Shown here piece by piece: positions 4,100 through 45,600 of a DNA stretch of 64,000 bases. Position 1 is the stretch's first letter. Each line of letters opens with the position of its first letter. Source of the stretch: Mytilus edulis. Its lineage: Eukaryota. Location: the NCBI RefSeq assembly GCF_963676685.1, contig NC_092347.1, positions 26,970,001 to 27,034,000 on the forward strand, given 5' to 3'. The notes beneath the pieces were generated by a model, which had not been told where the DNA came from, made no database searches, and saw only the letters and a program-made list of their open reading frames with translations. A program made the position numbers and the translations under genes.

Positions 4100-4312
4100 A
4101 CTTTGAATATTTTTCGAAAAACTAAGGATGTTCTTATCCCAGGAGTAGATTACCTTAGCCGTATTTGGCACAACTTTTTGGTCCTCAATGCTCTTCAACT
4201 TTGTACTCGTTGGCTTTATAACTGTTTTGATCTGAGCGTCATTGATGAGTCTAATGTAGAAGAAACGCGCGTCTGGCGTATTAAATTATAATCCTGGTAC
4301 CTTTGATAACTA
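4100..4312 (+). mobile_element. Short interspersed repeat with degenerate minimal hammerhead (Penelope-pLTR/retrozyme-like)
   Basis: Same family as 6005-6146 and 8415-8557. The core is mutated: TTGATGAG instead of CTGATGAG, and the stem II closing C is changed to A. Confidence 0.7.
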
Positions 4313-4789
4313 TTAATAATCTAAATAAAGAAAATTGAATTTCAGATGAGATAATGAATTAAGTTAAGTTGATACTAACAATGGGAAATATTGACATGGT
4401 GGTACACATGTGGTAGCTATAAACTGTTACATTGACTCTAGTGAGCTTTAACTGTATGACAACAAAGGTAAATATAAACAACAAGTCATTTAAGGGTTGA
4501 AAATTATGTTCTAGTCCTTAATCTAATGCCGGACAAAGAATAATTATTTGAATTTATTTTCTCTGATTAGAATATGCAAATAAACTCGATCAACATAGAT
4601 CTGCTCTATCTGGCATTAAGTATTTGGTTGAACATTGTCGTACTCATTAGTATGAACTGCCCACATTTTCTTTTTTTTTTTTTACAAAAAAAAACCAAAA
4701 AACTGCCAGCAGAAGTTGAGGTAAACATATACAAGCATATATTTTTTCTGGATTGCCAATAGTATATACAATGATATTTTATGAATGTT

Positions 4790-6553
4790 TTAACAAAGTG
4801 ATATTGTCACTTCATATAATTTGGCGTCCTTGGTTTTACTCCTTGTTGGTGTACTACATCCTATATAGAGTTGTCCTGTTGGGGTGAATACAAGAGAACA
4901 TAGTAATACTATGTTTATGTCACTTGTTTTATAACATGTCACCAGTGTGCCAGCATTGTTCAGGATATGGAGTGTATAAGTGTTGATATCAGCTACAATA
5001 ATATTGTCTCTAGGTGTTGTCACTATGTCTCTTAGATTGAAAGGTATGTCTTTGTTGATCTCTCTATCTCCTGTATAGATATTGATTATATCGCCTCCCT
5101 GTTCCAATACTACTACTCTATATCTGTTACCACGTACTCCACCATCAACCACATGAATATTACCATTACTGGTACTGGTTATTCTTAAGGGATAGGTAAA
5201 TATAGGTTGTTTATGTTGATCATGTTCATACACTCTCTCATGGTCTCCATTCTGATTCAGCAGTATTACAACTCTTCTTCCTTGTTTAAGGAAGTCTCTA
5301 TTATTACCTTCTTCTAAAATTTTATTGTCACTAGTGATATGGACTGCTGTAGGGTAGAATGGTGACAGATTATATACAGTGTCTGCAAGTTTACCCGTAC
5401 TACTGATTACCTCTTTGATTCTTAATCCCTCAGGACAAAGAAGTAGATTATTTGATTGAGTAACAGCCATACCATACACACTGATATTATAACTGGATAG
5501 AACCTTTATGTTGTTTCCATCAAGTTTTACTTTTTGAACTAAACAAAAACCACCAGAACTTATCCAGAAAGTCTGTTCAATAGATGAGCTAACAAATGTT
5601 ACAGCCTCTAATTCTAGTTTGATATTGTTTATTTATTTCCAGATGAACATGCGGTTCATAAGTAAGATTTTCATCAAATTCCAACACCCCAATGTAAGCC
5701 TGAGTGACCTCTTCTGGAATGAAGTTTGGTAAAGAGCCATAACTTGATCTTGGTTGGGGTATTTGAATGTCAATAGATTTTTCTAAATTATTTACTTCTG
5801 TAAAGAACTTGGAGGCATCACTGATTTGAATGAATTCCTGGACTTTATTGTTTTTGTTGTCAGCTTGTTTTAGTAAAACTGAGACAGCATTTAAGTCAGT
5901 TTTGATCATGTTAGAAACAGAGTTGTGATTCTAAGAACATCTTCCTTTACCTGGTTGTATTTATAATTTTCTGATGATAAAAGTTGGCTAAGCTGTTCTT
6001 TTTTATATTTTGGGTTCTCAATGCTCTTCAACTTTGTATTTGTTTGGCTTTTTAACTATTTTGATCTGAGCGTCACTGATGAGTCTTATGTAGACGAAAC
6101 GCGCGTCTGGCGTATAAAATTATAATCCCGGTACTTTTGATAACTAATTATATACAATTACTTTCCTTTTCCTTTGAATTTTCCTTTGTCCTTTTTTCAA
6201 TTTGTCTTTAACATCGTATCCTTCCTGAATTTCTGTTCGATCATGTTTGTTGTGAATTTTTGGTACATAGGTTGGACATAGAAGACTTTCACATGTCTTA
6301 CAATACAGACATACATATTGTTCAACATGGTCCTGACGGGAAATGTTTGCAAAATTTTCTTATTAAGTCCAATTTCTTTGATATCAATTAATCTGTGATC
6401 CTATGCTGTTTTTCCCCTTAAACATACCTTCTTACAATGATTACACAATAAAAGACCACACTCTAAACACTTCCATTTAATGGGTCTATCACTTTCACAT
6501 AATCCACAATTGACAGGAATTTGTCCTTTTCGGACTGATTGTGAAAATGCCAT
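4790..6553 (-). pseudogene. B-box/coiled-coil/NHL-like beta-propeller (TRIM-like) pseudogene, copy A
   Basis: MAFSQ..CGLCE..CLECGLLLCNHC (B-box1), a second B-box remnant (CLYCKTCESLLC..H..H), a coiled coil and an NHL-like C-terminus (4790-5479). Stops at ~6401 and ~5932, frameshifts, and a repeat insertion at ~6005-6146. Confidence 0.8.
6070..6113 (+). ncRNA. Minimal type I hammerhead ribozyme
   Basis: Stem I GCGTCA/TGGCGT, core CTGATGA, stem II GTCT-TATGT-AGAC, GAA, palindromic stem III ACGCGCGT, cleavage triplet GTC (after 6107). Confidence 0.8.
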
Positions 6554-6747
6554 TTTATTACACTTCAACAGGTGTATTATTTTCCTTGTTTGTAACCTAG
6601 GCCTCCTTGACAAACTTATCCCAGGTTTTTAGAAACATTTTTCGATCTATGATTACTCATTTCTCAGTTTATAAATAAAGTGTAGTATGAATAAACTTTA
6701 AATCAATATTTAAAGTTAAATGACTGTTTAAAACAAGTGGTATACAT

Positions 6748-6910
6748 AATTGTTTTACATTGTCTTTTCGGGGCCTTTTATAGCTGACTATGCGGTATGG
6801 GCTTTGCTCATTGTTGAAGGCCATACGGTGACCTATAGCTGTTAATGTCTGCGTTATTTTGGTCTTTTGTGGATAGTTGTCTCATTCACACCACATCTTC
6901 TTTTTTATAA
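6748..6910 (+). repeat. Abundant ~160-bp interspersed repeat matching the 3' end of the Penelope-like fragment at 12525-13697
   Basis: GGGGCCTTTTATAGCTGACTATGCGGTATGGGCTTTG...CATACCACATCTTC. Related copies at ~2795-2945, 13535-13697, 38628-38785, 45300-45700 and 51330-51700. Absent from the duplicated segment at ~8985. Confidence 0.75.
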
Positions 6911-7219
6911 ATCTAGCAAATGATATGTTGGAGTTTAAATGGACGTATGAATAGGTGTACATGAATATATAAGATATTATTTGAATTTATTTTCTCTGAT
7001 TAGAATATGCAAATAAACTCATCATATATCTGCTCTATCTGGCATTAAGTATTTGGTGGAACATTGTCTTACTCATAAGTATGAATTGCCCACATTTTCT
7101 TTTTTTTTTGCTAAAAAAAAACCAAAAAAACTGCCAGCAGAAGTTGAGGTAAACGTATACAAGAATATATTTTTTTCCTGGATTGCCTATAGTATATACA
7201 ATGATATTTTATGAATGTT

Positions 7220-8672
7220 TTAACAAAGTGATATTGTCACTTCATATAATTTGGCGTCCTTGGCTTTACACCTTTTTGGTGTACTACATTCTATATAGAG
7301 TTGTCCTGTTGGGGTGAATACAAGAGAACATAGTAGTACTATGTTTATGTCACTTGTTTTATGACATGTCACCAGTGTGCCAGCATTGTTCAGTATATGG
7401 AGTGTATGAGTGTTGATATCAGCTACAATAACATTGTCTCTAGGTGTTGTCACTATGTCTCTTGGATTGAAAGGTATGTCTTTGTTGATCTCTCTATCTC
7501 CTGTATAGATATTGATTATATCGCCTCCCTGTTCTAACATTACTACTCTATATATGCCACCACGTACTCCACCATCAACTACATGAATATTACCATTACT
7601 GGTACTGGTAATTCTCAAGAGATAGGTAAATATAGGTTGTTTATGTTGGTCATGTTCATACACTCTCTCGTGGTCTCCATTCCGATTCATCAGTATTACA
7701 ACTCTTTTTCCTTATTATAGTCTCTATTATTACCTCCTACTAAAACTTTATTGTCACTAGTGATATGGACTGCTGTAGGGTAGAATGGTGATAGATTATA
7801 TACTGTGTCTGTAAGTGATTACTTCTTTGAGTCTTAATCCCTCAGGACACAGAAGTAGATTATCTGATTGAGTAACAGCCATACCATACACATTTATATT
7901 ATAACTGGATAGAACCTTTATGTTGTTTTCATCAAGTGTTACTTTTTGAACTAAACAAAAACCACCAGAACTTATCCAGAAAGTCTGATCAATAGATGAG
8001 CTAACAAATGTTACAGCCTCTAATTCAGTTTCATATTGTTTATTTAATTCCAGATGAACATGCGGTTCATAAGAAAGATTTTCATCAAATTCCAACACCC
8101 CAATGTAAGCCTGAGTGACCTCTTCTGGAATGAAGTTTGGTAAAGAGCCATAACTTGATCTTGGTTGGGGTATTTGAATGTCAATAGATTTTTCTAAATT
8201 GTTTACTCCTGTAAAGAACTTGGAGGCATCACTGATTTGAATGAATTCCTGTACTTTATTGTTTTTGTTGTCAGCTTGTTTTAGTAAAACTGAGACAGCA
8301 TTTAAGTCAGTTTTGATCATGTTAGAAACAGAGTTGTGATTCTAAGAACATCTTCCTTTACCTGGTTGTATTTATAATTTTCTGATGATAAAAGTTGGCT
8401 AAGCTGTTCTTTTTTATATTTTGGGTCCTCAATGCTCTTCAACTTTGTATTTGTTTGGCTTTTTAACTATTTTGATCTGAGCGTCACTGATGAGTCTTGT
8501 GTAGACGAAACGCGCGTCTGGCGTATAAAATTATAATCCTGGTACTTTTGATAACTAATTATATACAATTACTTTCCTTTTCCTTTGAATTTTCCTTTGT
8601 CCTTTTTTCAATTTGTCAAATTTAACATCGTATCCTTCATGAATTTCTGTTCGATCATGTTTGTTGTGAATT
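7220..8672 (-). pseudogene. TRIM/NHL-like pseudogene, copy B (tandem duplicate lacking most of the B-box region)
   Basis: ORFs 7796-8320 and 7220-7690 are nearly identical to copy A. It has its own frameshifting deletions and the same hammerhead-repeat insertion. The 5' part is replaced by a repeat at 8675-8905. Confidence 0.8.
8481..8524 (+). ncRNA. Minimal type I hammerhead ribozyme
   Basis: Same architecture as 6070-6113 with an intact core. Cleavage predicted after C8518. Confidence 0.8.
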
Positions 8673-13697: not shown

Positions 13698-15274
13698 GTT
13701 CGCTACACTCGGTGATATTTTTTAAATTTTATATGGAATTACACTCCTTTCAAAATCTAGGGTCCGCCCATAAAGAGTACTTTTGAACTGTGCAGTATAT
13801 CTGAGGAAGTTATTGCACACCTTTGCTGTGCATTATCCAGATTATAGCACAGTAAGAACAAAGAGATTTTACCCATGTCATGTGTTAAGTATCCTTCCTT
13901 AACACATGACAGAGGCAAAATTCCTTTGATCTTACTGTGGTATAATCTGGATAATGCACGGGTCAGGTGTGCATTAACTACTTCAATAATTGCACAGGTC
14001 AAGTGAACTTCACGTCCTTGACAGATGTTTATTGTACAGTACTTTGCGTTTGTTGATTCCATTGCTACTACAAATATTTGTTTTTCTCCATTTTGTAAGA
14101 AATATCAAGTGGATACATGTATCTATACTCGGACATAAAAATCAGTCACTTGATAAAACATCAGAATAGAAAACATACAAAACAAATGTAGTAGTATTGC
14201 AATCAACATAATACAAGTCTAAATAAGATAAAGAACACAGGTTGATTTAATACTAAAATTATTTTTCCATCAATATAAAAAAAATTGTCATTAAAAAAAA
14301 AATGAAAATAAAGTATCATCGACATCTTCCTATTATAGTCTTGATATGTAAGTTATCAGTGTCACAACATGACACAATGAAAACTAAAAAAAAAAACCCG
14401 CCTTTTCATACATTTCTATGTACGGCTTAAAAACAACTTAAAATAACAATTCAGTGTTAAAAATTGAACACAAAATCTGTGAGGTTCACATCTTCGTTAC
14501 AAAATTGAACACGAAGTTTTGAAAAGAGCTGTTACTTGGCAATCCCCGATATTTTCCTTCTGGTTTTGAAACATTAAATGCATTTTCTGTATTTTCAATA
14601 TTAACTTGCTCAGGAAAGATTGCACGAGTATCGGTTAATGGTTTGGGATCCTCAAGTTTTATCTGCTTATTAGATGGATTCAAAATGTTAGAGACATCTT
14701 TTAGCATAGAATCCGCAGGTCTTTTGTAGGTACGAACAGCCTTTTCACTCCTGTGACCTGTTCTATCCATTATCATCTGCTCACTGACTCCTGCTTGGTA
14801 CAATCTAGTTGCAAGTGTTCTTTTCCCCGAGTGGTTACTAAAATTCCCCTTTAATTCTCCCTTTTGGCATATTGTCTTCATGAGTGACCCTAATCTATTA
14901 GCACCCAGTATGTGGTCAAACTTAACAGAACCATCTGATAAAACAGGTCTACGATAAAAAAAAAAAAAAAGGACTGCTAACAGATTTATCAATTTCGAAT
15001 ATTGCATTCATATACATCTGATACGATTTTAGGGTCTGACAATCCTTCTCTAAATATTGTCCGACATATTTTGGTGCAATATAGCGATGGCGTAGCCCTC
15101 CATTATACGTTTTATTATCCTTACCCCGGAATTCAATATAGTTTCCGTTATCATCTTCTCCTAATTGTATTTGAGAAATTTGCAGATTACGGTGTTCGTC
15201 ACGACCACGTAGACCAAAATATTTACAGTTGTAGAAAAAAACAGTATGCAATAAACTTTCGGATGAATGATTAC

Positions 15275-15371
15275 TAACTAAGCATTTACTAATATACTGT
15301 ATATTCATTTCAGGTATCAGTCATCCTTATTATTAAAGCTATAAACCTAGGAAGATGTTGACTCTCATTTA
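15275..15371 (+). repeat. 5' LTR (97 bp)
   Basis: Direct repeat of 20711-20807. Begins TAACTAA and ends CATTTA. Confidence 0.92.
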
Positions 15372-15413
15372 TGACTGATACTCAACTAACAGCTTAACCA
15401 CAGTGAATTTACA

Positions 15414-18400
15414 ATGCCAGTTCTACAGTGCCCTATAGACGGCTGTAATTGGAAATCTCAGGACCTGGATGAAGCATTTGCTGCTGCTCTAACCACTGCT
15501 CTACAGATTCATGACAAAACCGTCCACCCACCTCTGGCTCAACCGTCAACGCACAAGTTAAAATTAGACCCACCTTCTATAGCCACAGGATGTGATCCAG
15601 ATCAATGGTCTGCATTCACTAGACAGTGGAAGATGTATAAAACAGGGATGGCGATCACAGACAATGTCTTGCCCACAGCCCTTTTCTACTGCTGTGGCAC
15701 TAATCTGCGTACAGATATTATGCGTGACCTTCAAGGTGATGTTGCTAGTATGCTAGAGACAGATCTTTTAAAGGCAATCAAAAGGCTAGCTGTCAAAGAA
15801 GAAAGCACACTTGTCCAACGCATAAAATTGAACAGGATGACTCAATCACCTGGTTCAAATATCAGAACTTTTTTGGCCAGTCTCAGAGGCCAAGCATCAC
15901 TGTGCCAGTATAAAGCAACGTGTAAAGAATTAGGTTGCAACCATATATTTGACTATAGTGATGAGATAATAAAAGACAATTTAGTAAGAGGTATTGCAGA
16001 CCCAGAAATTATGTCTGACCTGCTAGGTGACTCCAAGACAGATAGAACATTAGAAGAGACTGTATCATTTATTGCTCAGAAAGAGCAGGGTAATGTCACA
16101 AGGAGTGCAGTAGGAGATTCAACTAGTGCTATGAGTGCCACATGTAATACCCAGAAGCGACCACAAGCAGCTGGAGCCAAATGTTGGGCTTGTGGTGGTC
16201 CTGCTCATGGACAGAGGAATGATCGCAAGGCCAGGTCTAGATACTGCGAAGCTTGGACATTCACATGTTCTAAATGTACAGTCAAAGGCCATTACACCAA
16301 ATCATGCAGCAAGTGCACTACCTGTGGCGTATGGGGCCACCGTGATGCATCTTCTAGAATCTGCACTCAAGGTAAGGGCCACAGGAACCCGCCCAATCAA
16401 GGGAAATCAACCAAAGACCAAGAACAAGAACAAGTTGGTTATATCTATGAGCAGCTGTGCACTACATCTGAACAGACAAACCAAGTATTACGTCTTGAAC
16501 ATCACATATTTGATGGACACTGGGTGGCGAGACCCTCAAAACCACATCCAATGCTCCTGGTGAACATGACACCCCTACCTGAGGACCATTCATCGTTTGG
16601 ACATCCCATTCAAGACACCTCTCAGCTTAAGACAATCACTATGTCCATGGTGGCTGATACAGGATGCCAGAGTTCAATCATACCTTTACAATCTGCAAAC
16701 AGTCTTGGAATAACAGAAAAGGATCTCCTTCCAGTAAAACTTGTGATGCGTGGAGCTATAAAGGAAGACCTCGGTGTAATTGGAGCAGTCGCAGTAAGTG
16801 TTACAACAAAAGACACTACTAGCAGTGCCATGTCAACACGTTTATTGCGTTATGTCTCTGATACCAAGGAAAAAGCTTTCATTTGCAGAGAAGCACTCAT
16901 ATCTCTGGGAATTATTCACACTAACTTTCCTAATGTATCAACAGTCACATCTCCAAACATTGCTGCATCTATGGAAAACTCTGAAGATGTAACCTGCTCT
17001 TGTCCTAGACGTCGACCTTCACCACCACCTGTTCCCACATCTTTACCACCCGGTCTGAAGGCCACAGAGGAACATATAGAGTCACTAAAAGAGTGGTTTC
17101 TTGATTACTATGGTGCTACAACATTTAATGTATGTGAACATCAACCTCTACCACTTATGAATTGTGAGCCTCTTCAACTCCATGTTGATCCAAATGCCAC
17201 ACCGGTAGCCGTCCACAAACCAGCACTTGTTCCTATCCATTGGCAGGATAAAGTTTATGCTGATCTTGAGAGAGATGTTCGCATTGGTGTACTGGAACAA
17301 ATAAGTCAAAACACACCTACAACTTGGTGCTCAAGAATGGTTGTAACCAGCAAGGCTGATGGCACTCCAAGGCGGACAGTAGACCTACAACCACAAAATC
17401 GACATTCTGTTCGGCAAACACATCATGTCCCAAGTCCTTTTCATCTAGCTGACCGTGTCCCTCAAGGTATGAAAAAAACAGTGACAGATGCTTGGAATGG
17501 GTACCACTCAGTGCCTGTTCGTGAAGAAGATCGCCATTTCACAACATTCATCACACCATGGGGGCGCTACAGGTACAAGGTTGCTCCACAGGGATTTATG
17601 GCCAGCGGTGACGCTTACAATCAACGATTTGATGCTATAATATCAAAATTCAACGACAAGGTTAAATGTGTGGATGACACATGTATGTGGGCGAACTCCA
17701 TTGAAGCAGCATTTTTTCAGGGATGTGAATGGCTCGACCTGTGTGCTCGTAACGGTATTACATTAAACCCAAAGAAGTTTTAATTTGCTCAAGACACTGT
17801 CAATTTTGCAGGACTTACAATCACCCCAACAAACATACGACCAAGTACTAAGTTCCTAGATGCAATTAGCAACTTCCCAACACCAACTGACATTACTGGT
17901 GCAAGAGCTTGGTTTGGGCTAATAAACCAAGGAGCATATGCATTTGCCATGGCAAGACAAATGAAACCTTTTCGTGCTCTGTTGAAACCATCCACCACAT
18001 TCTGCTGGACAAATGAATTAGATGAAGTATTTCACAAGTCAAAAGAGATCATTATTCAGGAGATGAAGGAAGGTGTTCGTCTTTTTGACCCTGCTCGTAT
18101 GACATGCCTAGCTACCGACTGGTCTGTTGACGGAATTGGATTCTTTTTGATGCAGAAGTACTGTCAGTGCTCAAGTAAAACCCCTACCTGCTGTAATGAC
18201 GGTTGGAAACTATGTCTAGTTGGCAGCAGATTCACACATCCAGCAGAAAGTAGATATGCTCCTATTGAAGGTGAGGCATTGACTGTTGTGTATGCACTTC
18301 ACCAAACACGCTACTATGTTCTTGGTTGCAAAGACCTTCTTGTTACAACTGACCACAAGCCACTACTACAGATTCTGAACGATCGATCACTCACAGACAT

Positions 18401-20265
18401 CGACAACAGACGACTTCTCAACCTCAAAGAGAAAACTTTAGGGTACAGATTCACAATTCTTCATGTACCAGGCAGAAAGAACCTTGGGCCAGATGCAGCG
18501 TCACGGTATCCTGTTGGACCACCAGATCGTCTGAACTTACCTGGTGAAGCACCTGAACTTGATTCCCTAGTTAACATGACTGCTCATTATCATGATACAC
18601 TTACCAGTCTATGTCTACATAAAGAGGATAATGATACAGCTAATGACGCCTCCACAGTCGCTGCTGCCACTTGTGCCTTGAATGCTGTTATCACAGTTGT
18701 TACTTGGAACATGGTTCGTGAGGCCACTGCATCAGACCCTACATTTGTAAATCTAATCAGGCAGCTGGAAGCAGGGTTCCCAGAAGACTACAAGGAGCTA
18801 CCAACAGACTTGCGTCCTTACCATCGCTTTGCATCCGTTTATGCACCGTGGATGGTGTAGTTCTTATGGGCCAACGAATTGTTATACCTCCAGCTCTTCG
18901 CAAACCAGTACTCAATGCTTTACACGCAGCCCACCAAGGAGTCAGCGCTATGCGTGCGAGGGCCATGGACTCTGTATATTGGCCTGAGATCACAGTAGAT
19001 ATTGCCCGGGTGAGAGACCAGTGTGTTCACTGCCATCAGATGGCTTAGTCAAACCCTATGCAGCCACCATCTGCCATAACACCTCCAGATTATCCATTCC
19101 AGATGATTTGCAGTGACTACTTCACATATAACAGTAATGACTATGTAGTTATTGTTGACAGGTATTCAAACTGGCCAATGGTATACAAGTCTGAATCAGG
19201 TGCCGAAGGACTTGTCAAGAGACTTCGTGAGACGTTCGTGACATTTGGAATCCCAGAAGAGTTGACGTCTGATGGAGGTCCACAGTTCAAAGCAGGGAAG
19301 ACTCAAGAGTTTTTAAAGGCCTGGGGAGTTCGTCATAGACTTTCATCAGTTGCAAACCCACACGCTAACTGCAGGGCTGAGATAGCGGTAAAAACAGTAA
19401 AACGCATGCTGGTGGACAACATTACTGCTGTTGGATCTCTGGATGTTGACAAATTCCAGAGAGCCTTACTAATGTACAGAAATTCTATTGACCCAGAGAC
19501 AAAAGCATCACCAGCATTGATTCTGTTTGGACGACCCATTCGTGATGCCATTCCCATACTGATGGGTAGATATTCTCCACATGAAACATGGACTGAGTTA
19601 ATGTCTCATCGAGAGATGGCTCTTGCCAAATGTCATTCAAGGGAACATGAACGGTGGAATGAACACACTCATCACCTGCCAACACTACAGGTTGGAGATC
19701 ATGTATACATACAAAACTTGGTAGGCAACCATCCCAGGAGATGGGAACGTACAGGAACAGTTGTTGAAGTACGCCAATACCACCAGTATGTTATACGTGT
19801 AGATGGTACAGGCCGAGTAACTATCCGCAACCGCCAACACCTTCGAAAGTTCACTCCTTTTCAAACCAACCAAACACAAGGTACTTTGATGGCACCTACT
19901 GCAGTTCAACATCAAGAAGTGATCTTGAGCTCTCCATCTACACACAAGTGCCCAAGATTCCAGTGTCTTTATCACCAACAAGAATCTTAAGTCAACCAGC
20001 TGCATTGAATGAGACACCAATTATAGTCCCCACTCAAAAACAGGCGACGCAGACTCAGACAATTCAACAGCCTTCACAAATAGATTTGGACCAGTCATTC
20101 CACCAGACCCCTGAAACAGATGTACCTTCAACGTCTAGAATACCACGTGCTCTATCCCGTCTTCAGCCACATAATAAAGCTGGAGAAAAGGAACTATTGA
20201 CACCACGAAGACCGAGCCGCCGCAACACAACAGAACATAACATTGATGAATCAGGAACTGATTAA
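15414..20265 (+). pseudogene. Gag-Pol polyprotein with stops and frameshifts
   Basis: Zinc knuckle CSKCTVKGHYTKSC, protease VADTG, RT DAWNGYHS..PQG..CVDD, RNase H LATDWS..YAPIEGE..TDHKPL, integrase HAAH..CVHC, SDYF/SDGGPQF/AEIAVK. Stops at 17781 and 19046, frameshifts at ~18838 and ~19945. Confidence 0.92.
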
Positions 20266-20313
20266 TGAAATATATATGCAAAGACATTGATAAGTGAATC
20301 TAGAGACTTTGCG

Positions 20314-20586
20314 TTTAAAATTGTGAAAGGACACCATACATTTAAAATTGTGAAAGGACACCATATGTTTCAAATTGTGAGAGGACACCATACGTTTAAA
20401 ATGGTGAAAGGACACCATACATTTAAAATTGTGAAAGGACACCATATGTTTCAAATTGTGAGAGAACACCATACGTTTAAAATTGTGAAAGGACACCATA
20501 CATTTAAAATTGTGAAAGGACACCATATGTTTAAAATTGTGAAAGGACACCATACGTTTAAAATTGTGAAAGGACACCATACGTTT
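20314..20586. repeat. 27-bp tandem repeat (10 copies) in the 3' non-coding region of the LTR element
   Basis: Unit TTTAAAATTGTGAAAGGACACCATAC(A/G). Confidence 0.92.
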
Positions 20587-20710
20587 AATCTTGTTTGCTT
20601 CCAGATGACTAACAGAACATTCCTGAAGATCTATTTTCTAATAGACTTGACTTTAATTGTTTAAGTTTTTTTTTTCGTATACAAAAAAAACTTGTCCCCC
20701 GGGGAGGAGA

Positions 20711-20807
20711 TAACTAATCATTTACTAATATACTGTATATTCATTTCAGGTATCAGTCATCCTTATTATTAAAGCTATAAACCTAGGAAGATGTTGACTC
20801 TCATTTA
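20711..20807 (+). repeat. 3' LTR (97 bp)
   Basis: Directly follows the polypurine tract and is followed by the TSD ATTAC. Confidence 0.92.
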
Positions 20808-23157
20808 ATTACCAAACACAGACTTGTCCCACAATATTTCTTCCTGTTCAACTGAAATTGGATCTGCTTGTTTAAAATTTATACCATACCCATCTGATGT
20901 TAATTTCTTCATCTGTGCATCAAGTATTTCTCTAAACATCAGAAATCTGTCATCAGACTCGTTCAAAAAGTTAAGATTAGAAACACCGTGTGACCGCATT
21001 CCTATTAGAAGTCCAGTTACAAGAAGATAAAGTGTTTTCGCTGGATATTTCTCTCCATTCTTTTTTCGAACTTCTAAAACAAATTTTCCTAAAATGCTGT
21101 TAATATCTTGAACAGACAAATCCTTCAGGTTTGGTATAATTAAACCACTACCAATTTTAGAATTCTGCCAGTAATGTCATAAACATTAACTGCCCATTTT
21201 GTGGCTTTCTTTGTGTTTTTGTTCTCAGCATCTTCAATAAGTGTATCAATTTCATTGTCTGTCATTTCTGAAAACCTTGATTCGACTCCTTGTTCCTGAT
21301 CTTTAGGTTCTTCATGCTAAAATAAGATATCACATAATTTAACACATGGCAGAGGCAAAATCCAGGATGTTCCGGATGAGAACAATTAAACAATAAAACT
21401 AGTCGGAAGTTTCCGCAAATGATTATATCAAGGGTCTAAGAAGCAGATCCAGAACTTTTTATTTAAGGGGGAGGGCTGACTGACCTAAAAGGAGGGGGCG
21501 CGGGTCATGCTTCAGTGATTCCCTATATAATTTACCATTTTTTTCCACAAAAGAAGGACCCGGGACTCCATCCCTTGGAATCCCTCAAATCATGCAATAA
21601 TGGGTCTGCGCGTGGCAGATAATTCTAAAAAAAGACGTACCTTGACATTTTGGATCTTTCCGTTTTCCGAAGGAACTTGCAACCATAGATCTAAGTCTAG
21701 TCCTAGGTCAAATGAAACAGCTGAGGTGTTGATTAAATCTCCAGATGCATTCTCATCCATCACATTACTAGGAAACTCTCCAAAAAAGTCCTCTATATTT
21801 ACATTTCTCAGTTCCATTTCATCCTCCAATGTTTCTAATACTTGCGATAAGATCATATCATCCTCCGATAATTCATGATGAAATCCATCCATTTCAACGT
21901 TTTGTTGGGCGAATGTGATTTATGCGGGAAAATTGTTGACGTCATGTGTTAAAACAGTTATTGGCCAATCAAATCGGTATGTTTTAATTTGCACAGCACG
22001 AGATGACCCATTAACCCGAACTCCTTCGTCGTTCGGGTTAAACAGGGTCACTCGAGCTGTGCAAATTAAATCCCATATACCGACTTGCTTGGTCAATAAC
22101 TATAACATAGGACAGTATGACTCGCTTAAAATATAAAATTTTCATGTTCATTGAATTGCAAAGTACGGTTCAAATTCCTAATTTTGGGGGTGGGGGTGGG
22201 GGGGGGGGGGGGTGGGTACATTTCCAAAAGAACATGTGTATAGTTTTAAGTTGACATGAACATAACTTCATTGTAATTTAATCTACCTTAACAAACAGAC
22301 GAAACCTAGTATTGGACGGACGGACTGACGGACGGCAGCACAGACCAGAAAACATTATGCCCCACTACCGTAGTAGGGACATAAAATTCCTAGTCACAAA
22401 TGGCAAATTTTGTTTGAGGCTGATATTCAGACGATCCACTGTAATAGCTATTATAATTTCAATGTTCCCTCATTGTTGCACGTGACAAGAAGCCTTAGTA
22501 TCAACTTTAATAATTACTATTTTCTAGGCATCTCAATAAATACTAAATACTGTATATATAGCCGATAGCCCAGCAATACTGGTGGACCCCATATTTTATG
22601 AATATAAATATAATTGATAAACACAATATTCATAAAGCATGAGTATCAATGCACAGTAAATTAACTTTCATTAAAGAATTCAATAGAATAATTAGTAAAT
22701 TGTGTTCAAAAATATTTTGCTCTGTCATCAACAATCCCGTCGGCCAGGAAAGACCAACAAAAACGAGTTACATCGGTCAAACTCCATTTAAACTGCATTC
22801 AAAAGACTGGTGACATTTTAAATAAAGTGGAAGATGTGGCAAACCTGTGTCCAAACCCAAATGCTAGGAAGACCGTCTCGAGAGTTATATTTAGACTGTA
22901 TATAAAGTAAATATACTATACATATAAATAGACTGTAATAAGTAATAACTAAGTTACTCTTTAGTAAAATATCTGCCTTCCAAATACAAATTAGAATAAC
23001 AATTCAATTGAAAATGAACTGTATTTCACTGTTGTCCAGTCAGATGATTGGCTAGAAGTGACAAACTAGGGAAAATATTCCCACTTAATATCAATATCTT
23101 CGGCTATGCATATATCTCGTTAGAAGATTTTCTATAGGTCGTTCCTCAAAACACAGA

Positions 23158-35800: not shown

Positions 35801-37634
35801 ACAAGAGTTTCTATAATAAAGTGCAAAGGGATAAATGATAGAAAAACTTCATAGAAACCATGTTTTCATGATCCTATCAAAGAAATGTAATTGTAAATAT
35901 TGAATACTTCTTGAAGTAATTTTATAGAGTTTTAAAAGTTGACCCTGCGTGCATTTTTAGAATGAAGCGCTTCCGTGCTTCATACAAAATTCAATCTTAT
36001 TTGTTATTGAAGTAATATTTATCTTGTATGTTATTGTAGGCACCTATAGAAATGAGAGACGAATGGTGGGCACAGTTGTTAATGACTGGACATTCTTCAT
36101 CAAGACGGAAAAACTTGTTGCGTTTCTTTCAAAAAAAGGAAAATGCAAAGTTAGTAAGAGCAAAGAAGAAAGTGGAAAATGAGAAAAAGATGGAGATACA
36201 TGATGCAGAAAAAAAAATTATGATGGGAGATCTATTGTACAATCCAATTAAGAGAAATACTATTCATTTAAAGATCTTAAGACAAACCATGGTTCATCAA
36301 ACGGATTCTAAACTAGCACAATCTATGATATTTGGTAGACCATTCGTTGTTGATATGAGCTATGAACCATACATGGGAATTAAAGAGAAGAACAGTTGTG
36401 TAGATCAATTACTTAATGGTTATGGTGCCAATAGATCTAGAAATGAACCTAGTGATCTCATATTTACCAACTGGATTCATGATAGCTTTATCTTTAAAAA
36501 GCTCAACTTTATTCAAAAAGAGCGATCTGCTTACCCTACCTTAATGATGAAATGTACTGAACAGAATTATGTGGATCTATTCCCAAAGGAAAGACTGGTA
36601 TATCTGTCACCACACTCACCTTTTGAGTTAACACACGATGACCCAGACAACATCTACATAATGGGAGGATACGTTGACTTGGGTGGCGGCAAGCAAGGAC
36701 AAAAACCAGTATCCTATGCTAAAGCTAAGCAAGAAAAAATTAGAAGTTGCAGACTCCCCTTAGATAAATATTGTGTGTAAGTTTAAGTTTGTGTGAGTCA
36801 TTTAAGAACCTCAAACAGAAATTGTGTTACCATCCTTTTCTTGAATTTCTCTAATAGACTGTTGAATAAATGTGAATACAATCCAGGTAAACTCGTAAGA
36901 GAGTCACACTATCTCTTTTTGATAAACATGATAAAGAGCTACTGAACAAAACACAACTAAAATGAAATGTGATCAGTATTTTGCATGTGAGTTCATAATA
37001 TAATGAAATTGAGAATGGAAACGGGGAAAGTGTCTAAGAGACAAAAACCAGACCAAATAGAAGAAAACAGCCCAAGGCTACCAATGGGTCTTCCACACAG
37101 TAAGAAAATCCTGTACCTCAAAAGGCAGGTCTCAGCTGGCCCTTAAACAAAAATGTATACCATGTATACTGATTCACACTATCATAGAAAAAGGAAGTCA
37201 CACTAAAATCCAAAACATAAATGAACCAAAATGAAAAAAAACAAACTTGCATGACTTACAAGACTAAAATTGGCCGTATGTTCCTGATGCAAAAATGCAG
37301 GGGGATTTAACATGTTTTGTGAGATGTCAAATCCCCCCAAACCCATAGCCAATGTAGAACTTATGTATTTTTATGCTTATTTGTGATGGGGGAAAGGAGT
37401 TAAATGTAGAATTTATGTATTTATATGCTTATTTGTAGATGGGGTACAGGAGTAAAGTCCTTAACCTTGAACCAAGTGATGAATATAATGTATGAATTTA
37501 TTGATACAAAAGACTGGAGCAGAGCATTTGAGCATGTGCCACGCAGGAAGTTACAAAGAGATGCGGATTTACGGGAACATTTATACAAAAAGCAGCAGAA
37601 AATGAATCGTGTCAACAGACGTCAATTCTTATGA
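29830..37634 (+). CDS. TRMT10C: tRNA methyltransferase 10 homolog C / mitochondrial RNase P protein 1; exons 29830-30144, 36040-36776, 37439-37634 (415 aa)
   Basis: Phase-consistent GT-AG introns, 1248 nt total. SPOUT Trm10 motifs FGRPFVVDMSY, LFPKERLVYLSPHS, IYIMGGYVD, RLPLDKY, WGTGVKSLTLNQV, W..AFEHVPRRK. Arg-rich N-terminus. AATAAA at ~37785. Confidence 0.9.
30170..31458 (-). mobile_element. Internally deleted Tc1/mariner element in TRMT10C intron
   Basis: Perfect 26-bp TIR CACATGGAAAAAAGTATTGCAACACC and TA TSD. Transposase remnants GHHHSTISR, RTVR..L...GFRA.RP.RRPLLT.RH and WPDRSPALNHIEHIWD. The middle of the DDE core is missing. Confidence 0.9.
31530..32735 (+). mobile_element. Helentron-associated (HINE/DINE-1-like) element with internal tandem repeats
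   Basis: Subterminal IR TTTATTCGACTGTA / TGCGGTCGTATAAA, (CGT)n microsatellite, ~120-140-bp tandem units, short GC-rich 3' end, T-rich flanks. Confidence 0.7.
32797..34487. mobile_element. TA-flanked MITE (C.GTGGATTCATT termini) hosting a nested insertion; related copy at ~35544-35754
   Basis: TA-CAGTGGATTCATT ... AATGAATCCACAG-TA. Confidence 0.7.
32825..34248. mobile_element. 1.4-kb non-autonomous DNA transposon, 5-bp TSD GGTAT
   Basis: CAGGGGTGGATCCAG ... CTGGATCTGCCACTG, with GGTAT on both sides. Confidence 0.75.
34705..35245. repeat. Degenerate ~32-bp minisatellite
   Basis: Recurring GGTTTAATACAGGTTTTCATGTTACCCAGTGTT-like unit. Confidence 0.7.
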
Positions 37635-42643: not shown

Positions 42644-45600
42644 TTATATTTGTACACATGACCCACTTTTTAACATTGTTACACATGATGCATGTATTGG
42701 ACTTGTGGGATAAATTTTGATAGGCAAGTCCCACACCATTGTTTCTACATTAATAGTAGCAGGTCCTCTCCAGCTGGCTGAATCATCCATATTTGTAGGT
42801 CTTTCTGATTCAGATATTGGATCACTTGAAGTCACGAACTCAAAATGTAGTCTCCATCTCAAACAAACTGTAAATATTAACAATAAATGTTACATTTTAT
42901 TTATCTAAGTAGGATTCAGTAGGATAAATTCCAAAAATTCTATCTGTTAATTGTCTCCCCTTTTGCATTTTTATAAAGAAATACAAATAAATCTTATCAT
43001 TCTTCGCTTGTTCAAAAATAACAGAACATTTTTGGTATTTATATCATTTGATACAGTGTATTGATGTGTTTTGGTCTATCATTTCAGCCGGCATATCTTT
43101 GTATTTGTTAGAGCAGGGAACAATGATGTGCTTGAATTATTTATATTAGTTTTAAAAGTTTCATTCCTAAATCTATTATAAAGCATTGGGTAGCTGTATT
43201 TAATTTGATATTGGTGTATTAATATGAGTATTTGTTAGTTCTAACCTATATCTGTTATGAAGCATGGAGTAGCTGTGAGTGGTATTGGTATATTGACATG
43301 AGTTTTAGCTGTATGAAGACACATTTCCTGATGTTTGACATAAGACGTCACAGCTGTTCCTTGACCAGGCTTCTTTCTACATTCTTCTGAGATTTGCTCC
43401 TCACTTTGTAATGTTACAGAATACTGAAAAATTAAAGTAGAAAATATTTGAGCCTTTCAAGATATTTGTTGTCATCAAAAAGTACATGCAGAAACATGAA
43501 TGTGTCCATAGTACTGATGACCAACTCACACTATCATTTTCTATGTTCAGTGGACTGGGAAATTGGGGTCAAAACTCTAATTTGGCATTAAAATTAGAAA
43601 GATCATACTGTAGGGAACAGGTGTTCTAAGTTTCAAGCTGATTGGATTTCAAAACTACATTGATCAAAAACTTTAACCTGAAGTAACAGACAAATCTATA
43701 GACTAAAAACATAATGCCCCTAGGTGGGACATTAATGTGTAGGAAACCCCCTAAATTAAATAAAACAAGAATGTGTCCACAGTACACGGATGCCCCACTC
43801 CCACTATCATTTTCTATGTTTAGTGGACCGTGAAATTGGAATAAATTCTCTAATTTGGCATTAAAATTAGAATGATCTTATCAAAGGGAACATGTATACT
43901 AAGTTTCAAGTTGATTGGACTTCTACTTTATCAAAAACTACCTTGACCAAAAACTTTAACCTGAAATTTGCACTATCATTTTCTATGTTCAGTGAACCGT
44001 AAAATTGGGGTCAAAACTATAATTTGGCATTTAAATTAGAAAGATCATATCATAGGGCACATGTATACTAAGTTTCAAGTTGATTGGACTTCAACTTTAT
44101 CAAAAACTACCTTGACCAAAAACTTTAACCTGAAATTTGCACTATCATTTTCTATGTTCAGTGAACCGTAAAATTGGGGTCAAAACTATAATTTGGCATT
44201 TAAATTAGAAAGATCATATCATAGGGCACATGCATACTAAGTTTCAAGTTGATTGGACTTCAACTTCATCAAAAACTACCTTGACCAAAAACTTTAACCT
44301 GAAGCGGGACAGACGGACGAACGAACGAACAGACGGACGGACGAACGGACACACAGACCAGAAAACATAATGCCCTCTACTATCGTAGGTGGGGCATAAA
44401 AATGATTAAAAATTAAAATAACAGGAGAAGATTTTGATGGAAGAACATCATGTTAAAATTAACATAAAAATTAAAAGTTGTCATTTTGTGGCAGTTAATA
44501 ATATCATGGAATAGATTTTCCATTTGAATAAAAGAAGATATGAGCCATACAGCACAAGACAGCAAACCAACAGAGAAAAAACACCTTTTAAAGACGATGA
44601 CAGATCAACATATGTTTTTTTTTTGTACAGGGGGCACACTGGCTTATTGCAAAGCATATAAAAAGACATGTTTCACTTGTGAACATATCTTTTTTCTGGC
44701 TAACTAATCTTAAAAGTGAACAGGATAAAAATAGTTTATACTTTATATAATAGTGATCAATAGCCTGATATGATCTGGGGACATTTAATAATTATGAATA
44801 AGAGTGACAGTTGTATGCATGGCAAATAGGATTTAGTTACTGGTGACCAAATATCACAATTTCTTACAAAAACTCATCCATGATTCAAAGTTTATAATTT
44901 GTATTTGGTATGCCAGATGCAAGTTTTTTTTTTAGAAAATATCCAATCTTGATCAATTTTCATAACATTTGACCAAATCTAAGGATTTCATTTCTTCCAT
45001 TTATATTTTGATTCTGTCATACTGGGACAGATTTAATTGTTTGTAGATCTTTATTTTCTACCAACCTGGACACATGGTATTGTTCCATCTGTGAAGTTGA
45101 ACACACCTACAATGTCTTCACCTAATTTATAGGCTTGCTTAAAAAGTATAAACTTAGCTACTTTTCCTTTGGCATTTGTAATATTGTATGAATCTGAAAT
45201 GAAAAAAGTTTGTTTTATTTTATTGCTTATGTATTTACATTGTATCATAGATCAAATTTATTCATTCAGTGTAATGCCACTTGTGTTAATATGCATATGT
45301 CTTTTGATTGAGTTAAGCCATTTTAATTGATTTTTTATAGTGTGTCTTTCTATGTTGGGATGTTACACTATTTTTCAGATAAGGGTGAAGGTTGGTACCT
45401 ATTAAAATGTTTAAACCCTAAGCCTTAGTCAGGAATCCTATGTACAGTAGTTGTTGTTTGTTGATCTGGTTCAAAAGTGTTTCTTGTTTCTTGTTTCTCA
45501 AATAGGTTCAACCATTGGTTTTCCCATTTGAATGGTTGTACACTAGTCATTTTTGGGGCCCTTCATAGCTTGCTGTTTAGTGTGAGCCAAGACCGTGATG

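Follow-up and report, generated by a model that had tools for sequence, protein, structure and literature searches.

Probable self-priming in a Gypsy-type retrotransposon of Mytilus edulis, with genomic traces of primers led by host exons

An LTR retrotransposon found in the window (the whole stretch of 64,000 nucleotides analysed) very probably starts reverse transcription from a segment of its own LTR, judging from sequence comparisons within and between families, and aberrant genomic copies of the same family (family A) make it very probable that RNAs in which host exons are spliced to this LTR have primed some of its copies. That such spliced RNAs, made up of host exons plus the first 10–15 bases of the LTR exon, are the main source of primer is a weaker claim that we consider probable on balance. 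Self-priming itself is known; what is new is a variant of it with genomic evidence that points to host-exon-led primers, and no earlier description of host-exon primers was found in the literature searched, most subscription papers and Repbase lying outside its coverage. To our knowledge, self-priming has been proven only for Tf1 of fission yeast and has been assumed to need the transcript’s own 5′ end. Copies fixed in the mussel genome indicate that a primer can also lie downstream of a splice acceptor and be headed by host exons.

Anatomy of the element and its primer site

The element (15275–20807, plus strand) lies between target-site duplications (TSD) of ATTAC (15270–15274 and 20808–20812) and is bounded by LTRs of 97 bp with TA..TA termini (5′ LTR, 15275–15371; 3′ LTR, 20711–20807; 96/97 positions identical). 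Its gag-pol region (15414–20265; protease-like, RT, RNase H and integrase) was recognised from ORFs and from Pfam matches to RVT_1, RT_RNaseH, Integrase_H2C2 and rve, and the PR-RT-RH-IN order between two LTRs is that of Ty3/Gypsy (Metaviridae). The RT, which carries a CVDD motif, has Ty3 RT as its top match in the PDB (E 2e-19), followed by a caulimovirus-type sequence (6e-14). The TG..CA termini and tRNA primer site that are usual, but not universal, in Ty3/Gypsy are replaced here by TA..TA and by a primer site that begins TG(A/C/T). gag-pol of the window copy contains two in-frame stops (17781–17783, 19046–19048) and two frame changes; uninterrupted frames of ~1600 codons in several copies elsewhere indicate that the family is young, and TA..TA ends with TSDs of their own (5 bp) recur in other copies. 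No Chromo match was obtained at E 0.1 with the 1622-aa uninterrupted family ORF or the window’s C-terminal frame. The plus strand also carries an ATTAAA that may be a poly(A) signal (15332–15337), a 27-nt tandem array of at least 11 units (20258–20648; repeat family D3) in the 3′ untranslated part, and a polypurine tract adjoining the 3′ LTR (20701–20710). A protein labelled Mytilus edulis matches the RT at 97% identity, which is consistent with the mollusc lineage named in a preliminary description of this DNA.

The retrotransposon has split a Crypton-like element (minus strand, 14489–15269 and 20813–21919) with QRICH1, DUF3504 and Phage_integrase (tyrosine recombinase) domains. Elsewhere the window contains tandemly duplicated NHL-repeat exons (4210–8563, minus strand), an ORF with a tRNA m1G methyltransferase domain (36040–36777, plus strand), Rgp1 exons (43244–45251, minus strand) and decayed LINEs near 24–26 kb, 56–59 kb and 64 kb. 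No host gene spanning the window copy was identified among the 112 of 152 ORFs scanned, a scan that short exons would escape.

The preliminary description had proposed an 11-nt primer site at the LTR boundary (15371–15381), exactly complementary to 15314–15324 within the LTR, extendable by one G-U pair and lacking a tRNA-type TGG. The sequence bears out the exact reverse complementarity, T15382 can indeed pair with G15313, and the junction after the 5′ LTR has no TGG, but the site is one base shorter than described. Because the LTR pair (96/97), the TSD of ATTAC and the same ends in other copies make A15371 the last base of the LTR, the primer site proper directly adjoins the LTR and comprises 10 nt (15372–15381, plus strand), pairing with a self-primer segment at 15314–15323 (plus strand); T15324 adds one pair, with the final base of the LTR. 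Within the window the 11-mer of 15314–15324 occurs in the two LTRs only and its complement at 15371 only. The 10-nt match was reached by none of 5000 shuffles of the LTR, and the predicted fold of the pairing has a z of about -2.7, with 2/200 shuffles equally stable.

Covariation across the clade

Related elements form a distinct RT clade, with 42–98% identity to the query versus 24–35% for other Gypsy elements of the genome, and in an RT tree (54 rows, built with no named reference set) the clade stands apart from other Gypsy on a stem of 1.33 with support of 100/99. Sixty-five clade loci were taken, most of them fragments or repeats of a family. The relatives are mollusc-labelled or come from metagenomes or animal-associated MAGs, where they are probably on host contigs; none was found among the viral contigs searched. 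L170–L190 were assembled into bacterial MAGs from samples of marine animals, where their contigs are probably host contamination; another clade member, L087, was assembled as a head-to-tail repeat of 5.36 kb in which no LTR pair was recognised.

In the 14 clade families with a 5′ junction the primer sites all differ, and each pairs over 9–14 nt with its own LTR, in a segment that ends 42–74 nt before the LTR end. For each family at most 4/5000 shuffles were as good as the family match, and positions 3–10 of the pairing show two to four pair types each across families. Primer site and LTR segment thus change together, as the check for covariation proposed in the preliminary description had anticipated. 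Eleven of the 14 junctions were set by LTR pairs or contig-end overlaps; for L073, L170 and L189 the complementarity screen itself supplied the position, which makes these three circular as evidence for the match. L190 and L083 were left unresolved by tandem repeats. In the basal clade member L086 (1–260) the junction pairs over just 5 nt, after TTTTAG, and this element is possibly an exception or a variant with an LTR intron. As controls, 20 other Gypsy loci of the genome were taken, of which 11 had resolvable LTR ends; their own-LTR match was 4–7 nt, and they were mostly TG..CA elements with TGG-type sites, the rest having other sites.

Priming by a host tRNA, a tRNA fragment or a small RNA, with the LTR match as a by-product or a structural hairpin, is very improbable in view of these 14 differing sites, each matching its own LTR, of the junction without TGG, and of the primer copies described below, which agree with the LTR variant at every base. 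The explanation keeps some room because the tRNA screen covered only part of the host set (seven distinct sequences, from arrays of few types). A genome search for the exact 10-mer ahead of a T-loop motif gave two sites, neither of them in a tRNA.

Host exons in aberrant copies and the structure of U3

A pattern search yielded 22 family-A LTR/primer-site junctions, of which 14 run on into the element and eight into foreign DNA. In the latter, here called misfired copies, the LTR is matched without error as far as the AG at 15312–15313, bar single later mutations in two old copies. The primer copy accordingly measures 10 nt in the window’s type, and in a variant whose LTR carries a 5-nt insertion it measures 15 nt; where the host exon itself ends in G or CAG the match extends 1–3 nt past the AG. 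Full-length copies of the 5-nt-insertion variant (n = 6) match over just 11 nt, and the perfect match in misfired copies therefore argues that their primer sites were written from the primer. Together with the covariation in 14 families, this overwriting of primer sites by exact copies of the element’s own LTR variant supports self-priming without a tRNA, as originally suggested.

Six of the eight foreign pieces were traced, on the opposite strand, to host sequence elsewhere in the genome: four with 99–100% identity to single loci on other chromosomes, one with 82% to a Rab-like gene and one with 86% to a three-copy repeat. They are two C3 exons that lack the intervening GT..AG host intron of 2.4 kb (L104, on contig C6), a first-exon-like piece from C2 (L096, on C3), the first coding exon of a copine gene on C1 (L111, on C13), an exon from C4 (L103, on C6), exons 1 and 2 of the Rab-like gene on C1, joined (L217, an old copy on C3), and the repeat on C11 (L095, on C2). 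Copine and Ras domains were confirmed downstream. The pieces in L109 and L220 have genome matches only to themselves. All six traced pieces end where the host has GT and are joined at the AG of the LTR (15313|15314), and from this we conclude that spliced RNAs of host exons and LTR very probably primed these copies. The chimeras L096, L103 and L104 return to the element further down, and TSDs at L103 and L095 indicate that the integrase finished these insertions. L144 (11 nt, then internal sequence) was set aside as a plain jump.

Family A LTRs continue with GTA after the AG, as donors begin, and template switching at this common GTA might in principle have produced the chimeras in place of splicing. 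This is very improbable: the donor consensus reaches past GTA in five of the six, with AG at donor positions +4/+5 (background 0.050, p about 2e-6), a host intron is missing from two chimeras (L104 and L217), and in family B, whose acceptor is followed by ATG and not GT, the match nevertheless stops at the AG. Full-type copies of family B (n = 11) retain a mismatch at position 10, while in its aberrant copies (n = 4) 13 nt of primer are copied perfectly, as far as the AG. Two of the four, together one duplicated insertion, were traced to paralogs in which GT stands at the joint; the foreign pieces of the other two were not traced to host sequence. L137 and L139 are chance pattern matches and were left out of the family-B counts, and L193 is decayed.

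The U3-like part of the window LTR (15275–15313, plus strand) resembles a 3′ splice site: its 39 nt before the primer segment contain a branch-like CTAAT (15289–15293, plus strand) at -22, then a T-rich tract and TTTCAG (CAG at 15311–15313), with no other AG between. Among 22 family copies the branch-like CTRAY is kept in 19, the YAG in 21 and the AG-free zone in 20, against 13 for the TATA-like TAATATA, so that the TATA-like promoter of the preliminary description is not favoured by conservation. A similar acceptor-like layout, with a tract of 47–63% T, is present in families B, C, L072, L073, L078, L177 and L189. The Inr-like TCAGT (15317–15321), which had been said to overlap the pairing segment, lies inside it. 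A transcript 5′ end at 15314 behind a TATA/Inr promoter finds no support in family A, where six of the eight misfired copies have host exons joined at 15313|15314 and none of the eight has a primer whose end is that of a capped start.

In seven other families the match instead reaches the A of YCA(G/C)TT, after which comes a single C (exactly so in six; L170 has a short insertion). Two of these Inr-type families have no AG, most are less T-rich, and judged from their junctions they would fit transcripts with a capped start as in Tf1, the C being a copy of the cap. Six of the seven Inr-labelled or related rows fall into one subgroup of the tree (support 87/78), with L170 apart. A perfect match up to a capped start is found in none of the full-length copies of families A (0/14), B (0/11) and C (0/4), and a CTC-like remnant lies just past the match in the primer sites of families A and C.

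In a family C copy (L194, G000:C9 near 45,480,740) the primer copy spans the whole U3; it was set aside as evidence for an unspliced primer, since fold-back of plus-strand DNA explains it equally well. In both L194 and L133 the LTR runs into its own U3 in inverted form, likely by fold-back through the self-complementary primer site. On G000:C1 (39.83–39.87 Mb) the neighbouring copine and Rab-like genes, 41 kb apart on the same strand, were captured independently, by a young (L111/L119) and an old (L217/L223) insertion, either by coincidence or because the region is a hot spot. A metagenome contig (L071) carries at its end, behind a full element, the same LTR/primer/copine-exon joint as L111, and may represent the L111 insertion in another animal or a collapsed assembly.

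Possible routes of priming and relation to known elements

The scheme that we regard as probable on balance begins with the covarying complementarity between primer site and LTR segment. The short U3 would act as an acceptor and not as a promoter, leaving transcription mostly to host promoters, most simply in cis from sense copies in early introns. The next step is seen in the genomic fossils: RNAs that had been reverse transcribed carried, 5′ of the primer segment, host exons joined at their GT donors to the AG of the LTR. By analogy with Tf1, the segment would fold onto the primer site and RNase H would cut just 3′ of it, freeing a 3′-OH; an RNase H domain is present in the element (Pfam RT_RNaseH), and both this cleavage and the copying of the primer are described for Tf1 in the available text (PMC7175516, PMC11042837). 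The fossils also show that plus-strand synthesis continues into the primer, as it does in Tf1, and here copies host exons. The unpaired tail would normally be lost, so that full-length copies keep the parental primer site; at times it jumps back into the element or is inserted unchanged. Traces of this scheme at over a third of junctions, the lack of a capped short primer and full-length copies without a perfect match together suggest that this is the main route.

Against it, the CAG could also act as an initiator, as it appears to in the seven Inr-type families, and this opens a Tf1-like alternative that we hold to be possible and less likely. Transcription would then start at the CAG just before 15314 and the capped first 10–12 nt would be the usual primer, host-exon primers being a side reaction of intronic copies whose AT-rich U3 happens to serve as an acceptor. 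The same-clade families that fit a capped start, two of them without any AG, speak for it, as does the CTC-like remnant in families A and C; long tails favour misfires, moreover, so that aberrant copies are a biased sample and may overstate the spliced route. It does not readily account for the absence of the capped-start end from the eight misfired family-A copies, for full-length copies of families A, B and C that never have the perfect match typical of Inr-type families, for the stronger conservation of the branch-like motif, the YAG and the AG-free zone relative to the TATA-like motif, or for a U3 of 39 nt.

Within the spliced route itself, a trans-splicing variant is doubtful and somewhat less likely again. 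A promoter-less LTR retrotransposon would snatch capped first exons of abundant host pre-mRNAs through an element RNA that has a branch point and an acceptor but lacks a donor; the chimeric RNA would be both message and primer, a spliceosome-made counterpart of viral cap-snatching, and the element would be related within its clade to Tf1-like elements by an initiator/acceptor switch at the same CAG. The donors belong to at least five unrelated genes on four chromosomes and are mostly exon 1 or 1+2, and no source copy was found near any donor examined: there is no family LTR within 50 kb downstream of four donors, nor any in 160 kb around the copine and Rab-like genes bar a 58-nt match of 74% (E 0.004), and copine intron 1 is only about 2.8 kb. 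However, a missing cis source in one assembly is expected under cis-splicing as well, since intronic source copies would do harm, would be rare and would not be linked to the copies that they gave rise to; trans-splicing also needs a source of transcription for the acceptor-bearing RNA, and the T/A strand skew of flanks gave no orientation signal (16/33 positive). Four raw RNA runs provided 41 reads, some carrying unspliced U3, and in so few reads neither a junction nor a start pile-up was seen. In one contig guessed to be RNA the LTR is joined to foreign sequence at 15315, a single base away from the expected joint; its two flanks were not found in this genome.

If host-exon-led primers are indeed used, host splicing and host promoters become part of LTR replication, the 39-nt U3 is explained, and 5′ exons of housekeeping genes have a route to new sites, in reverse orientation. 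Misfired copies would offer a general read-out of the primer’s 5′ end in any LTR family from sequence only, and the occurrence of initiator-type and acceptor-type families within one clade makes the switch testable.

Host exons are known to be captured by retroviruses and to be spliced into transposons in gene traps. The mussel copies are alike in that host exons spliced to a retroelement acceptor are carried into new copies; they differ in the position of the exons, which lie immediately after the primer site in reverse orientation, a sign that they had belonged to the primer. Tf1 of Schizosaccharomyces pombe uses the first 11 bases of its transcript as primer, according to the available text (PMC7175516, PMC11042837). 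Self-priming is given as known in Tf1/sushi and Tcn1 chromoviruses, and as predicted for the plant Copia TAR lineage (Houba, Osr-1), in the accessible part of PMC6317226. With Tf1/Tf2, Tf1/sushi and Tcn1 the mussel element shares a primer site complementary to its own LTR, but where the first bases of the transcript prime in Tf1, the segment in the mussel family lies behind a splice acceptor and is preceded in the fossils by host exons. The Tf1/sushi trait of a primer at the very 5′ end of the transcript would fit the seven Inr-type families; in family A the fossils have host exons 5′ of the primer. The mussel clade further differs in its TA..TA termini and 97-bp LTR, and without a chromodomain match nothing ties the element to the Tf1/sushi lineage. 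The TAR elements have a primer site complementary to their own LTR that arose independently; they belong to the Copia superfamily, and a splicing step is not reported in the available text (PMC6317226).

The clade quite possibly corresponds to one of the MolGy groups of molluscs, and its TA..TA termini or primer site may already be described in Repbase or paper supplements. The main text of the mollusc LTR survey that defines MolGy never mentions a PBS or primer (PMC6238403), and two RT motifs of the clade were not found in four of its supplements (tables). A bivalve TRIM study reports absent primer sites and, in its available text, gives no mechanism (PMC6934838). Like the Troyka/Kuafuorterviruses, the mussel clade is an LTR lineage from aquatic animals that has a long branch and unusual termini; in the accessible parts of their descriptions these have CG..CG termini, a 3-bp TSD and an I/V/LADD motif (PMC12440569, PMC11673190), whereas the mussel element has TA..TA, a 5-bp TSD and CVDD.
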